From: a virus
Strand: one strand, 5' to 3'
IMG/VR virus record: IMGVR_UViG_3300021375_001810
DNA length: 64,000 nt
Position numbers and translations under genes: made by a program
In this document: in pieces, positions 42,095 through 48,263 of the stretch
How the letters are laid out: every line of letters starts with the position of its first letter
Position numbering within the stretch: the first letter of the stretch is position 1
Notes under the pieces: generated by a model
What the model saw: the letters and a program-made list of their open reading frames with translations, nothing else
Databases searched by the model: none
Told to the model about the DNA's origin: nothing

Positions 42095-42616
42095 ATGCAA
42101 GACATAATGAACATTGTAAAGAACATTGACAACATCTACAACAGCAATACATCGTTTAATATTTTAAAGGATTTTGAACGTGTTTTAGATGAATTAGATC
42201 TATATGTGTATAAAAACTGGAAGGATGGCGAATTATGTGCTGGTCCTATTATAGATCGTCATTGGGTTACATGCTCATTTATGTGGGATAAAGATAACAT
42301 GCCAGATCCAATGGGCGGCAAACGTTTACTTGATTATGATTGCAAAGTATCCTACGGTAAAGACTATCTTATTCAACCACGTAAAATTAAAGTACCAGAC
42401 GATATTCGTCCTGGCACTAAGAAGGGTAAATTAGATAGAAAAGATATTTGGGTAGTAGAAATACAGATGCCTAAGAAACTTATAATAGATATTTACGGTG
42501 GTAAGTTTGCTACAGAAGAATATCAAGAAGAACCTGCTGTAGCACCAGATGTTGCACCAGCGCCGCAAGCGGCTGACGAAGCTGTACCTACGGCTCCAGA
42601 AGGAGAAACAGTATAA
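42095..42616 (+). CDS. conserved hypothetical late protein
   Basis: GATAAATA upstream; MPDP.GG.RL motif. Confidence 0.7.
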   Translation: MQDIMNIVKNIDNIYNSNTSFNILKDFERVLDELDLYVYKNWKDGELCAGPIIDRHWVTCSFMWDKDNMPDPMGGKRLLDYDCKVSYGKDYLIQPRKIKVPDDIRPGTKKGKLDRKDIWVVEIQMPKKLIIDIYGGKFATEEYQEEPAVAPDVAPAPQAADEAVPTAPEGETV

Positions 42617-43332
42617 TGGGATTACAAGCAGGAGATTTAAAAAACATGATGTATGATATCTTCGAAGTTGATTCGTATGCGTCTAAAATGGGCGATGATA
42701 AAAATATTGTTACACTAAGTTTTAGTGTAATGGAAAAGGCAGCGGCAGATGACTTAATGAACTTTTTAGAAAAAGGTTATTCATTTGTGTTAGATGCAGA
42801 TGCAACACCAGGTGAGCAAAGTGACGGAACTTATAAAGTGTTTGTTGAAATGGAAAGAGACAGGGATGTCCACAATAACATTTTAGAAATCGTTGACGGC
42901 GTAAAAGAACTTTCAAACATAGATGATTTTAAATTCCGTTACTATAAAGGATTTAAATCAAAGTCAGTAACAGAAGAAGAATTAACAGCAACTATACCTA
43001 ATGATCCAGCAAACTATGGACTTAGAGTAGATGAAACAAATTTAGACAATTATAAAAACTTCTTTAGTAATAGTTTTGTTGAAAGTGTCAATTTATTAGA
43101 AAACAAATTAACAATTAAAAAAGCATTTGCAGACCCGATTAAATTTGAACTTATTGACTTTGGCGAAAGAACTGAAGTGTATTCAAATATTAAAGAAACA
43201 TTAGACATTATGGAATCGTATCCTGAAGTACTCTATTTGACAAAGTACTTAGGTGACTATAATATAAGTAAGTATGGAGACAAACTTATCTTTGAAAATA
43301 AAGATAAGGCTCTCGTTTTAAAAAGGATCTAA
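42616..43332 (+). CDS. conserved hypothetical protein
   Basis: coupled ORF; SKMG.D, F.EKGY. Confidence 0.7.
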   Translation: MGLQAGDLKNMMYDIFEVDSYASKMGDDKNIVTLSFSVMEKAAADDLMNFLEKGYSFVLDADATPGEQSDGTYKVFVEMERDRDVHNNILEIVDGVKELSNIDDFKFRYYKGFKSKSVTEEELTATIPNDPANYGLRVDETNLDNYKNFFSNSFVESVNLLENKLTIKKAFADPIKFELIDFGERTEVYSNIKETLDIMESYPEVLYLTKYLGDYNISKYGDKLIFENKDKALVLKRI

Positions 43333-43334
43333 AA

Positions 43335-44222
43335 ATGAGTTTTGAATTACAAAAAGAACAGTTAGCACAACTAATACCAGGTAACAACGATGTCGATTCG
43401 TGGCACGAAGCACTGGTTGCTATTATGCCCAAGTATGGTATTAATACTGTAAGACGTGCGGCACACTTTATAAGTCAGTGTGCTCATGAAAGTAACAACT
43501 TTCGTTCATTGCAAGAAAACTTAAACTATAGTGAAAAATCACTTAATGCTGTATTTGGCAGGTACTTTGGTACTGGCGTTCATCCAGCAGGACACACAAG
43601 ACGTAATGCAGCTGAGTATGCTCGCAACCCAGAAAAAATTGCAAACTATGTATACATGGATGAATTCCGTAAGTACAAAATGGGTAACGTCAATGAAGGC
43701 GACGGTTGGTTATTTAGAGGCCGTGGCTTAAAACAATTAACAGGACGCGAAAACTATACACGTTTTGGTAAAACTGTAGATATGACAGCAGAAGAAGCTG
43801 CTGAATACGTTGCAACACCTAAAGGTGCTGTTGAGTCAGCATGTTGGTTTTGGGACGCAAATAATTTAAACTCAATTGCAGACACTGATGATGTTGTAAA
43901 AATGACTAAAAAGATTAACGGTGGTAACATTGGTCTTGAGTCACGTCAGAAGCGTTATACAAAAGCAATGGAAGTATTTGGTAACCCTGTATCATTAGCA
44001 GACGATCATGGAGATGATGATTTTGATGTAGATGATATCGGCGTACTACGTAAAGGTTGCAAAGGCGAAGGTGTTAAATTAATGCAGGAAGCATTAGGCA
44101 TTGGAGCAGATGGAATCTTTGGCCCAGGAACAGAACGGGCATTAAAAGAGTGGCAGTCTAGCAAAGGCTTAGTAGTAGACGGCATTGCAGGCCCTGCAAC
44201 ACTCGGCGAACTTTTGGGGTAA
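43335..44222 (+). CDS. endolysin: GH19 catalytic domain plus C-terminal peptidoglycan-binding domain
   Basis: F..Q.AHES, ENLNYS, RGRG..QLTGR.NY, INGG..G; DGIFGPGT and DGIAGPAT. Confidence 0.92.
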   Translation: MSFELQKEQLAQLIPGNNDVDSWHEALVAIMPKYGINTVRRAAHFISQCAHESNNFRSLQENLNYSEKSLNAVFGRYFGTGVHPAGHTRRNAAEYARNPEKIANYVYMDEFRKYKMGNVNEGDGWLFRGRGLKQLTGRENYTRFGKTVDMTAEEAAEYVATPKGAVESACWFWDANNLNSIADTDDVVKMTKKINGGNIGLESRQKRYTKAMEVFGNPVSLADDHGDDDFDVDDIGVLRKGCKGEGVKLMQEALGIGADGIFGPGTERALKEWQSSKGLVVDGIAGPATLGELLG

Positions 44223-44227
44223 TAATT

Positions 44228-44455
44228 ATGTGGAAAGAACAAGTTATGCAAGTACTGGAAGGTCATTTCGGTACTAAAAAAGAGATCACTGAAACAAGTC
44301 ATTTTTTAGATGACCTAGACGGTGACGAGATTGATATAGTTGATGTAACAGTTCAAATATGTGAAAAGTTAGATATCAATATACCTGAAGAAGAAACATT
44401 TGATATAGGAACTGTACAAGAATTACTTGATGTAGTGGAGAAACACGTTGTTTAG
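44228..44455 (+). CDS. acyl-carrier-protein-like protein lacking the conserved Ser
   Basis: acidic 75 aa, F.DDL.GD[E]ID.V....E...I.IP.E....TV.E pattern of ACP. Confidence 0.75.
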   Translation: MWKEQVMQVLEGHFGTKKEITETSHFLDDLDGDEIDIVDVTVQICEKLDINIPEEETFDIGTVQELLDVVEKHVV

Positions 44456-44933
44456 CTCTATTCGTATAGCACTTGTATTAGTGCTACTTGCATCTGCCGG
44501 TGGCGGCTATTTGTATGTTAAAAAATTACAAGGCGACCTTGATACAGCAAAAGCTAATATTATAAAACTTGAAGATGGTATCAACGAACAAAAGGCTGTA
44601 ATTGCACAACAAGAAGCAGACTTCGAAGCCATTATTAAGGTCAGAAATGATCTTGAAGATGTAAATAGAATGCTGGAGACTGCTAATAAAAACTTAAATG
44701 AAAAGTTTAATAAGTTAAATGCATCCGGTGAAAGACGTGACATTGGTGCGTTATCAACATCAAGACCAAAGTCGATAGAAAGAATTTTAAATAAAGACGA
44801 AGTTAACGAAAGACGTTGTTTTGAAATCATACAAGGTTCGGAGTTAACTGAAGAGGAACTAAATGCTACAAAAAAGTCAAAGATCAATACTGTATGTCCT
44901 GAGCTTGCTAATCCTAACTACATTCCTTACTAG
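44448..44933 (+). CDS. i-spanin (Rz-like)
   Basis: N-terminal TM, long coiled coil, C-terminal Cys, downstream of endolysin. Confidence 0.7.
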   Translation: MFSSIRIALVLVLLASAGGGYLYVKKLQGDLDTAKANIIKLEDGINEQKAVIAQQEADFEAIIKVRNDLEDVNRMLETANKNLNEKFNKLNASGERRDIGALSTSRPKSIERILNKDEVNERRCFEIIQGSELTEEELNATKKSKINTVCPELANPNYIPY

Positions 44934-45258
44934 TTGTAGTACGATTCAGCCATTAGAAGTTTTTAAGACAGAAGTAGAACGACGTCCTCTTAATTTGCCT
45001 TTACCTGCACCAGCAGAACTTGAACAAGTCCGTTGGATAATAATTAATCGAGAAAATGCTGAAGAAGTATTTGCAGATTTAGAAAAGAAAAATATTGATC
45101 CTGTTATAATAGGATTAACAGATGAAGATTACGAGAACTTCAGAAAAAATTATGCACAGATCCGTGCATATATGATAAAACAAAACTCAATCATTGACGC
45201 TTACAAAGAGTACTATGAAGGTGAGCAAGATGACCAAAAGGTTGACAACAACCAATAG
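44863..45258 (+). CDS. o-spanin lipoprotein (Rz1-like)
   Basis: lipobox LTSC, Pro-rich, overlaps i-spanin in another frame. Confidence 0.7.
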   Translation: MLQKSQRSILYVLSLLILTTFLTSCSTIQPLEVFKTEVERRPLNLPLPAPAELEQVRWIIINRENAEEVFADLEKKNIDPVIIGLTDEDYENFRKNYAQIRAYMIKQNSIIDAYKEYYEGEQDDQKVDNNQ

Positions 45259-45270
45259 TTTTGTTATAAT
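45242..45270 (+). promoter_or_regulatory. sigma70 promoter for iscS-iscU
   Basis: TTGACA-N17-TATAAT with extended -10 TG. Confidence 0.85.
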
Positions 45271-45290: not shown

Positions 45291-46508
45291 ATGAAAAGGA
45301 TATACCTAGACTACGCATCGACCACTCCATGCGATCCGAAAGTTGCTAACTTAATGGCAAAATACCTCACCTTTGAAGGAGAGTTTGGTAACCCTGCAAG
45401 TAGAAGTCATAGTTTTGGTTGGGAGGCTGATCAAGCAATTGACACAGCAAGACAACAAGTAGCAGACCTTATTGGTGCTGATCCAAGAGAAATTGTATTC
45501 ACAAGTGGTGCTACTGAAGCAGATAACCTTGCTATCAAAGGCACAGCACAATTCTACGAAACAAATGGCAAGCACATTATCACAAGTAAAATCGAACACA
45601 AGGCAGTACTTGATCCTTGCAGAGAACTTGAACGCGACGGATTTGAAGTTACATATCTTGATCCAAATGATGACGGTATAATTACAGCAGATATGGTTGC
45701 TAATGCAATCAGAGAAGATACTATACTTGTAAGTATTATGTTTATTAATAATGAACTTGGTACTCTTAACGATATAGAAGGCATTGGTAAACTATGCTTC
45801 GATAAGAAAATTACATTTCATGTAGATGCAGCTCAGGCTACAGGCAAGGTTGAAATTAACTTAGCAGAACTTCCTGTAAATTTAATGAGTTTGTCCGCAC
45901 ACAAAACATATGGTCCAAAGGGTGTAGGAGCATTGTATATCAGACGTAAACCACGTGCAAGAATAAGAGCACAAATGCACGGTGGTGGTCACGAAAGAGG
46001 CAATAGAAGTGGAACATTACCTACACATCAAATAGTAGGAATGGGCGAAGCATACAGGATTGCTAAAGAAAGATTTGAACAAGACAAGGCTCATGTAAAT
46101 ATGTTGCATGATCGCTTGTTAGAAAGAGTCAACGAAGTTGACGAAGTGTATTTAAACGGAAGTCTTAATCACAAAGTTAAAAACATTCTAAATGTTAGTT
46201 TTAATTTTATTGAAGGCGAAAGTTTGATTATGGCTTTAGAAAATGTTGCTGTTAGTAGCGGTAGTGCATGTACAAGTGCAACACTTGAACCAAGTTATGT
46301 ATTACGTGCTTTGGGCAGAGCAGACGAACTAGCACACAGCAGTATACGATTTAGTTTTGGAAGACAAACTACAATCGAAGATATTGACCAAACAGCAGAT
46401 ACATTATTAGACGTAGTTGAAAAATTAAGACAACTATCACCATTATGGGACATGTACCAAGACGGCGTTGACATGGAAGCGTTCAACTGGGACGAGTACA
46501 TGCATTAA
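45291..46508 (+). CDS. iscS: cysteine desulfurase IscS
   Basis: [21 protein letters not shown] (PLP Lys), SSGSACTS (catalytic Cys), SPLW C-terminus. Confidence 0.97.
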
Positions 46509-46518
46509 GGAAATTATT

Positions 46519-46944
46519 ATGGCATATTCAGAAGAAGTAACAAAAAGGTTTAAAGGTGTATTATCAGATCCTGAAGGATTTAATGTAGGAAAGTTTGATC
46601 CAAAAGATCCTAAAGTAGCAACAGGAATGTCTGGAGCACCGGCTTGTGGTGACGTAATGCGTCTACAACTTAAATTAGACGAAGATGATAAAATTGAAGA
46701 TGTAGTTTTTAAAACATATGGTTGTGGAAGTGCTATAGCAAGTTCAACAATGTTTGTTGAAATGCTTAAAGGTAAAACAGTAGACGAAGCAAGACAAATT
46801 AAAGATAAAGATATTGCAGAAGCATTAGATTTGCCGCCGATCAAAATACATTGTTCTGTACTAGCAGAAGATTCAATCAAAAAAGCAATTGACGATTGGG
46901 ATAAAAAGAGAGAAATAAGACAACACAACGGAGGACCTAAATAA
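46519..46944 (+). CDS. iscU: Fe-S scaffold IscU
   Basis: MAYS, GAPACGDVM, FKTYGCGSAIAS, LPPIKIHCS; ATG 46519 with AAGGA RBS. Confidence 0.96.
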   Translation: MAYSEEVTKRFKGVLSDPEGFNVGKFDPKDPKVATGMSGAPACGDVMRLQLKLDEDDKIEDVVFKTYGCGSAIASSTMFVEMLKGKTVDEARQIKDKDIAEALDLPPIKIHCSVLAEDSIKKAIDDWDKKREIRQHNGGPK

Positions 46945-47126
46945 TGCCAGAAAAATTTAAACCATCACAAGTTATTAGAGACAAGGCCTCTGGTAAAAAG
47001 AAAACACAACACTTCTATATAAAGTCTACACCAAAGCAAGAACTTTTAGACTATTTAGATAATCATAATGCAAAGCCCAAAATAAAAACTAAAGTTAAAA
47101 AAGAACTTATTCGAAGAGGGGTATAA
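46944..47126 (+). CDS. small basic hypothetical protein
   Basis: TAATG-coupled. Confidence 0.6.
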   Translation: MPEKFKPSQVIRDKASGKKKTQHFYIKSTPKQELLDYLDNHNAKPKIKTKVKKELIRRGV

Positions 47127-47404
47127 TGAACTGGTGGGATCGATTCTTAGAGTGGAGTTGGCAAAGAGAAGCCGACAGGCAATTTGCTCAGGCCCAAACA
47201 ACTATAGATGATATAGGTCACATTACTAAGCCTGCAAAAAAAGTAATTGATGTCATGGAAGATGATATCGATCCAAATGAAGTTACAATAGAGAACGCAT
47301 ACAAAACAAGATGGATATGGTATCATACAATACTAGCAATAGGTATTTTTATGACAAACATATTATTAATAGCCATTTTAACAGCATTAATTATTAAGTT
47401 ATGA
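47126..47404 (+). CDS. small membrane protein
   Basis: C-terminal TM; coupled. Confidence 0.6.
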   Translation: MNWWDRFLEWSWQREADRQFAQAQTTIDDIGHITKPAKKVIDVMEDDIDPNEVTIENAYKTRWIWYHTILAIGIFMTNILLIAILTALIIKL

Positions 47405-47772
47405 GTATACCAGAAATAATAGGATTTAGTTTTTTATTTGTAATAGTAGCAACTGTATTGGTAATACTATCTTGGTTTATGGCAGAACTAATACACGGTA
47501 AAGGTCTTGGTACAAAAGGAATTGAAACAAAGCCTTATAGATCTAAATCAGGAAAGATTCGCACAGCGAGAAAATCTAGACAAAACCACATAGTATAGTG
47601 TCTTGTCCAAACCCAACCCCAACAAAACCCAACACTATAAGAATGACTGTTGAAGTTGAAATACCTTATGACCTTGAAGTAGTACAATACGTTGATAAGG
47701 GTAAACAAAAAATTATTGATTATATTAACAGTGACAAATTTCAGTCATACGAAATGATAATAGGACCTCATA

Positions 47773-47943
47773 ATGAAGAAAGAAAAAGTACTCCAATACG
47801 CAAATCTAGCACCAAGTGAATCTATAATAGAAAAACTAACAGAAATTCACCCAATGAAGCAAGTCTTTTGGGCTTCAATTCTTCAAATATCTGTGTTTGG
47901 GTTCATGCTTCTAGCCTTCTTTATTATAGATAAAATCAGCTAA
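47773..47943 (+). CDS. small membrane protein (56 aa)
   Basis: AGGA RBS, C-terminal TM; below ORF-track cutoff. Confidence 0.5.
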   Translation: MKKEKVLQYANLAPSESIIEKLTEIHPMKQVFWASILQISVFGFMLLAFFIIDKIS

Positions 47944-47978
47944 ATAATAGTACAATATAATAAACACGAGGGCACTTT

Positions 47979-48263
47979 ATGTGGGAAATGATTGAGAGAA
48001 TGGCGGACGACCGTCTATGGATTTATACAGCAATAGCCGGTAGTATATTTGGTGCATTGTTCATTGCATACATGCGTGATACTAAAATGGCATTATGGGC
48101 ATACAGTAAATGGGACTGGTTACTTGATTCTCTTAGAGACAGGTATGGATGGACTTGGTTAGATCAAGATCCTGATGCATGGAAGACGATCAATCCTAGC
48201 ATAGCAAACAAGATCGAAGAGATCGATGCTCGCTTATCTAAACTTGAGGGAAAGAAAAAATGA
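47979..48263 (+). CDS. late membrane protein
   Basis: CTAAATA upstream, GAGG RBS, TM. Confidence 0.65.
   Translation: MWEMIERMADDRLWIYTAIAGSIFGALFIAYMRDTKMALWAYSKWDWLLDSLRDRYGWTWLDQDPDAWKTINPSIANKIEEIDARLSKLEGKKK

Follow-up and report, generated by a model that had tools for sequence, protein, structure and literature searches.

An acyl carrier protein fold that has lost its serine, encoded next to the spanin genes of marine phages

The 64,000-nucleotide stretch of viral DNA analysed here (the window) encodes, among its lysis genes, a small protein with the fold of an acyl carrier protein (ACP) in which the serine that would carry phosphopantetheine is replaced by glutamate. The loss of this serine has been kept by selection, the rear of the protein surface has been remodelled, and the gene is linked to the spanin pair and independent of the nearby iscS. 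We put at roughly 60% the probability that this is a neo-functionalised ACP, which has kept its fold, along with the acidic residues at the start of helix II, and acts by docking on one ACP client during the lysis period. Few proteins in bacteria have as many interaction partners as ACP, and a non-loadable look-alike with a partial docking face is a natural probe of those ACP interactions that are independent of the cofactor. Furthermore, the spanin linkage extends over marine and enterobacterial jumbo phages, which suggests that docking of the ACP type has an unrecognised connection with the final stage of Gram-negative lysis. Our literature searches brought up no study on the function of a phage ACP.

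The gene is an open reading frame from ATG to TAG at 44228..44455 on the + strand, encoding 75 aa, and the product is net acidic with neither a signal peptide nor a membrane segment. Its ATG begins 5 nt past the stop codon of the endolysin, a gap that leaves no room for a promoter ahead of the gene, and its 3' end overlaps by 8 nt the i-spanin start, a TTG at 44448 with GGAG 7 nt upstream. The clean reading frame running into the start of the next gene, as described in the earlier note, is therefore real. Searches of a phage database with the region (megablast) and the protein (tblastn) gave no match at E = 10, a result that is uninformative, low-complexity masking being probable; phage relatives were reached via the neighbouring virion protein and via family searches of records. 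No PADLOC model for defence or counter-defence matched, and the T4-type late promoter TATAAATA occurs 0 times in 41-46 kb and six times in the whole window, where ~9 would be expected.

All genes of this neighbourhood lie on the + strand. At the head of the co-directional string are two genes homologous to virion structural proteins of RaK2 and 121Q (42095..43332; phrog_12928 and phrog_13138; tblastn matches to RaK2 ORF168/169 and 121Q gp62/63), a homology that places the window phage among the relatives of the RaK2-like jumbo phages. The endolysin that follows at 43335..44222 (295 aa) combines a GH19-like catalytic part with a PG_binding_1 domain (phrog_181, 3e-73; PF01471, 4e-12). Downstream of the ACP-like gene lies the i-spanin (44448..44933, 161 aa; phrog_739, 1.6e-9, with phrog_89 and phrog_214), in which the N-terminal membrane segment, IALVLVLLASAGGG, is followed by a coiled coil and leaves only ~5 residues in the cytoplasm. 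The o-spanin (44863..45258, 131 aa; phrog_812, 9e-12) is, from its translation, a lipoprotein with the lipobox LTS|C, and the two genes overlap at 44863-44933, so that the pair has the features of a two-component spanin. Placement of the ACP-like gene in a lysis cassette near iscS was thus read correctly from the start, i.e., endolysin, i-spanin and o-spanin, then IscS and IscU; the gene is flanked by the endolysin and the spanins and is not part of a fatty-acid synthesis cluster. Farther on, downstream of iscU at 47126-48263, are small open reading frames of 92, 65, 56 and 94 aa with one hydrophobic segment each and no PHROG match; these are possible holin or antiholin candidates, the lysis cluster itself having no holin.

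The product is a member of the ACP fold superfamily and not an AcpP equivalog. It matches Pfam PF00550 (PP-binding) with 29.0 bits over residues 11-69, above the gathering score of 20.8, and also phrog_5934 'acyl carrier protein' (1.1e-7) and, weakly, phrog_18343 (0.018). A family profile made from the window protein and 24 homologues matched 105 solved carrier-protein sequences and aligned DDLdGDefDivDv on DDLGADSLDLVEL, with residue 34 at the position of the DSL serine. In the AlphaFold2 model, for which the family alignment was the input (mean pLDDT 94.3), helices span residues 2-14, 34-48, 54-57 and 63-74, which is the four-helix ACP bundle with its short helix III, and Glu34 opens helix II like Ser36 in AcpP. 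Foldseek searches of the PDB with this model returned AcpP-type carrier proteins (TM 0.79-0.86, rmsd 1.6-1.9 Å, 25-34% identity), and all 39 of the PDB matches listed with E <= 0.001 are carrier proteins. Whether the fold is a four-helix ACP at all, a point on which the first reading depended, is answered by this high-confidence model and its TM of ~0.85 to E. coli AcpP. The best scores against the NCBIfam AcpP models (TIGR00517, NF002147-51) were 45.2, 45.1, 43.1 and 40.1 bits, none of them reaching the respective cut-offs of 66, 71, 106 and 70.45.

The codon of residue 34, at the phosphopantetheine-serine position and the start of helix II, is GAG at 44327..44329 (+), at least two nucleotide changes away from every serine codon. 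The replacement of the DSL serine by glutamate that the earlier note reported is upheld both by this codon and by the profile alignment to solved ACPs, and the attachment serine expected of PF00550 is missing from the window protein and its clade alike. Each of the 24 close homologues (58-96% identity) has Glu or Asp in the serine column, and these two residues alone occupy it in all 26 full-length clade members, down to 39% identity. A search of 1.8 billion representatives, exhaustive and run without a profile, produced 499 hits; among 187 aligned rows (the 24 close homologues and the best 150 of the 499 representative hits), the site is Ser in 141 and E or D in 40. Relatives of the window protein make up nearly all of the E/D rows, with P0029, P0036 and P0039 at down to 39% identity among them. 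In a maximum-likelihood tree the 17 sampled E/D proteins form one clade (support 99/94), the nearest cellular outgroup of which, P0069, sits in a plsX-acpP-rnc context. Inside the clade Asp has arisen from Glu at least three times (the P0003-P0010 group, P0015 and P0039), a third residue type does not occur, and the codons at the site are GAG, GAA and GAT.

Between the window and L001, the sole relative in which synonymous sites are unsaturated, dN is 0.13, dS 1.10 and omega 0.12; the remaining pairs are at or near saturation, with dS of 0.7-2.7 or not computable and omega of 0.15-0.68. Judged from these sequences, the serine was replaced once, anciently, the replacement has been kept under purifying selection, and a carboxylate appears to be required in the marine branch. 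The serine loss is accordingly a conserved trait of homologues at 39-96% identity, and we reject a sequencing error or a pseudogene given the codon distance from serine, the fixation of E/D in a monophyletic clade and the omega of 0.12. The family is common in ocean metagenomes, single members having been seen on >100 contigs. Since the serine is absent, neither a holo- nor an acyl-ACP form is possible at the canonical site, and the protein must act by binding and not by carrying.

The ACP-like gene lies directly before the i-spanin gene in the window and in L001-4, L008-9, L005-7, L014, L015 and L016-17. While L001-4 and L008-9 have the gene order of the window, the upstream gene varies among the marine loci between a GH19-like endolysin, a GH108 endolysin with a Cys-rich open reading frame, and a virion-protein gene. 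In L005-7, where the protein is 62% identical, the order is virion-protein gene, ACP-like gene, i-spanin, o-spanin, DnaJ and ClpB, with no endolysin or iscS nearby; in L014 and L016-17 (39-48% identity) it is GH108 endolysin, Cys-rich open reading frame of 43-52 aa, ACP-like gene, i-spanin, o-spanin and MotA/ExbB; and in L015 it is virion-protein gene, ACP-like gene and i-spanin. Homologues of the i-spanin, 49-52% identical, always come after the ACP-like gene in marine loci, and o-spanin homologues, 52-60% identical, are found in every marine locus whose sequence runs far enough downstream (L005, L014, L016 and L017). The spanin pair is the sole constant neighbour of the ACP-like gene. Part of this synteny could be due to inheritance and not to function, these phages all being related.

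Two other genes near these modules deserve mention. The small open reading frame before the ACP-like gene (L014 901-1059, L016 3877-4008) encodes an acidic protein of 43-52 aa that starts MRTCQNCGREHEG, with a CxxC motif, and matches no family; it was considered as a holin and rejected, being Cys-rich and acidic and having no membrane segment. A SufE gene lies ~4 kb upstream of the module in L005 (1879-2298), a lineage without adjacent iscS-iscU, and sulfur-mobilisation genes thus differ among branches of this phage group.

The same order, i.e., ACP-like gene, Rz-like i-spanin and o-spanin lipoprotein, is found in five records of RaK2-like phages, in which the upstream genes are unrelated to those of the window: pEa_SNUABM_12 (gp158-160), fHe-Yen9-04 (g153-155) and GAP32 (gp159-161), all three with Ser at the serine site, 121Q (gp510-512) with Trp, and RaK2 (ORF009-011) with Thr. 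Upstream of the ACP-like gene is a tail fibre gene in 121Q and hypothetical genes in the other enterobacterial phages. A paper on Erwinia Eneladusviruses had already remarked that an 'acyl carrier protein' lies close to a gene resembling a spanin, and had detected the protein by LC-MS/MS (PMC7760394).

Such constancy raises an alternative, unlikely in our view yet deserving to be weighed first, in which the protein is a dedicated cytoplasmic accessory of the spanin step that, for example, holds or times the precursor of either spanin ahead of Sec export or lipoprotein maturation, or sets spanin stoichiometry by translational coupling. It would account for an adjacency that is invariant in marine and enterobacterial jumbo phages while upstream genes and spanin families change, and for the stop/start overlap with its internal GGAG. 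The closest Ser-bearing relative, P0032 (49% identity, in L028), is likewise encoded directly after an o-spanin, of the same phrog_812 as in the window. However, spanins are periplasmic, and a direct partnership with an ACP-like protein that has no export signal is topologically awkward, and the i-spanin exposes only ~5 residues to the cytoplasm. The Glu-bearing ACP of phage phiMAM1 lies 2.3 kb from the spanin, and no spanin is annotated near the ACP of an ICP1-like phage. To our knowledge, no known spanin system requires a third component.

Set against 129 Ser-bearing hits, the 26 full-length members of the clade show which parts of the ACP surface have been kept (AcpP numbering is used for both sets). 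The clade retains D31, L32, D35, D38, V40, an acidic residue at E41, the I54-P55-acidic-acidic stretch and T64-V65, and at the front of helix II the window protein has D33, D36 and D39 as the equivalents of D35, D38 and E41. The changes are A34 to Gly (96%), L37 to Phe, Ile or Met, L42 to Val, A45 to Gln (88%), E49 to Lys (100%) and F50 to Leu; A59 has become Thr and E60 Phe (88%). The E47 position (residue 45 of the window protein), 98% Glu in Ser-bearing ACPs, is Cys, Glu or Thr in the clade, and at the position of E48 it has E, K or S. On these alignments the protein would be only a partial mimic, in which the recognition helix has kept its front, but the back of helix II and helix III present a new surface. 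Of the non-loadable ACP mimic or decoy proposed initially, the non-loadable look-alike stands, on fold and serine loss, but the faithful decoy does not: a variable E47, Lys at E49 and Phe at E60, with scores below the AcpP cut-offs, speak for a remodelled binder.

MukBEF condensin occurs in gammaproteobacteria, and the phage IscS, which in the alignment is ~70% identical to that of E. coli, may point to a source in this class. It is conceivable on these grounds that the protein mimics ACP towards a host hub that does not depend on the cofactor, above all MukB or else AcpS, and MukB ATPase is stimulated equally by apo- and holo-AcpP (PMC8602292), so that a Ser-less ACP could in principle bind. 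We nevertheless regard it as improbable. The linkage to spanins and the late expression would be left unexplained, helix III and the back of helix II have been remodelled, and AcpS needs E47 and E48 of ACP (bioRxiv 10.1101/2025.01.28.635281); with the E47 equivalent lost, docking to enzymes that need this residue, e.g., AcpS, is disfavoured.

The suggestion that the protein partners the phage IscS is not supported. The genes are close together in the window, with iscS at 45291..46508 (+; TIGR02006, 675 bits vs a cut-off of 643) and iscU at 46519..46944 (+; NifU_N, 5.7e-40), and some of the residues required for docking are present. In E. coli, binding pairs D35 and D38 of ACP with R112 and R116 of IscS (PMC13343975), and the equivalents in the window are D33 and D36 on the ACP-like protein and the retained R111 and R115 on IscS, while the phosphopantetheinylated serine is missing. 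The S36T change in ACP abolishes IscS binding, and only acyl-ACP stimulates IscS (PMC13343975). An extended -10 sigma-70 promoter (45242..45270, +; TTGACA, 17 nt, TG, TATAAT) that matches the consensus at 12/12 positions lies 21 nt upstream of iscS, in the terminal part of the o-spanin gene, and this perfect promoter marks iscS-iscU as a separate transcription unit. Transcription of the Fe-S genes thus probably relies on the host polymerase in its unmodified form and does not depend on the lysis genes. Moreover, three lineages (L005-7, L014 and L016-17) have the ACP-like/spanin module without adjacent iscS, and enterobacterial jumbo phages have the same module order and no iscS in the regions examined. 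The genes iscS and iscU are neighbours only, outside the conserved module, and a role for the ACP-like protein as partner or modulator of the IscS-IscU Fe-S machinery is very improbable. With its arginines R111 and R115 retained, the phage IscS could be regulated by host acyl-ACP.

Least probable of all is a virion-associated or injected acidic protein in place of a lysis-period factor: the gene does lie downstream of two homologues of RaK2/121Q virion proteins, and an 'acyl carrier protein' has been detected by LC-MS/MS in Eneladusvirus particles (PMC7760394) and, by one peptide, in a Vi01-like phage, but the same Eneladusvirus preparation contained lysis and nucleotide-metabolism proteins (PMC7760394), so contamination is likely, and neither RaK2 ORF009 nor 121Q gp510 has a virion-protein annotation, though their neighbours do.

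The reading that we prefer, a neo-functionalised ACP that docks on one ACP client, can be put as a mechanism. The protein would be cytoplasmic, as the missing export signal implies; its gene shares one co-directional late string with the endolysin gene, and its translation is coupled to that of the i-spanin. Its D33, E34, D36 and D39 would dock onto a patch of basic residues on a single ACP client, where the carboxylate of residue 34 perhaps takes the place of the prosthetic-group phosphodiester by phosphate mimicry, and the client would be occupied or re-programmed during the lysis period. Given that the gene always travels with genes that disrupt the outer membrane, we favour either a client that takes part in supplying envelope lipid or a function in the biogenesis of the spanins. 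Our best guess for the client class would be an envelope-lipid enzyme sensitive to acyl-ACP or apo-ACP, of the PlsB, LpxA or LpxD type. PlsB is inhibited by apo-ACP. Envelope lipid supply may then be frozen when the spanins act. A freeze of lipid synthesis minutes before lysis is not known to bring a benefit, which counts against the client proposal, and the presence of S, T or W at the site in enterobacterial members means that the carboxylate is not needed family-wide, which weakens the idea of phosphate mimicry. We think it quite unlikely that the broadest version holds, in which ACP-fold proteins are a third, cytoplasmic component of the jumbo-phage spanin step, coupling the metabolic state of host envelope lipids or ACP clients to outer-membrane disruption, and the marine carboxylate mimics the phosphodiester of holo-ACP.

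A Rosetta-stone search for a partner yielded no credible fused form. The only longer hit in this search, P0180 (L034 68-490), which combines an S4 domain with a truncated ACP-like portion, lies on an 885-nt contig with 1.08x coverage and was set aside as most likely an assembly chimera. Carrier-type domains also occur in multiples in metagenomic proteins: P0042 (235 aa) has two tandem ACP-like domains that both lack the serine, the residue being D in one and E in the other, and P0043 (335 aa) has a lipoprotein-type N-terminal signal, two Ser-bearing ACP-like domains and a third with Glu.

Among known systems, the ACP-like proteins of the RaK2-like jumbo phages (phrog_18343/phrog_5934) share with the window an ACP domain encoded directly before the i-spanin and o-spanin, and in part of the group the serine is dispensable too (W in 121Q, T in RaK2). 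They differ from it in several respects. Unlike in the marine clade, the site is not restricted to a carboxylate, and the canonical DSLD is intact in Eneladusvirus and Mimasvirus members. The enterobacterial proteins are of 134-139 aa with an N-terminal extension of ~55 aa (GAP32 gp159 is annotated with 84 aa), whereas the window has the bare 75-aa domain, and their spanins belong to PHROGs 1152 and 2425 vs phrog_739 and phrog_812 in the window. Marine and enterobacterial ACP-like proteins are ~23% identical, a distance at which neither sequence nor tree settles orthology.

Serratia phage phiMAM1 (Ackermannviridae) offers a second case of Glu at the serine site, in gp092 (L020 2884-3156; motif WFDELD). 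Its gene is in a co-directional string with an Rz-like spanin, but ~2.3 kb upstream of it, with four genes in between, and the protein falls outside the marine clade in the tree. This second Glu suggests that the replacement of serine by a carboxylate arose more than once in phage ACPs. AcpP itself (PF00550; TIGR00517/PRK00982), to be compared above all in its apo form, has the same length and four-helix fold as the window protein (TM ~0.85, 30-34% identity to E. coli chains), but it has the DSL serine and a fab gene context where the window protein has Glu (E/D in the clade) and a phage lysis context.

The mitochondrial ACP-LYR complexes (NFS1-ISD11-ACP and complex I) depend on an acyl-phosphopantetheine arm that is inserted into the LYR protein, a mode of binding that is impossible for the window protein because the serine is absent. 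What NFS1-ISD11-ACP does share with it is the use of the ACP fold as a binding module, and the window model superposes on the ACP chains of 5usr and 8pk8.
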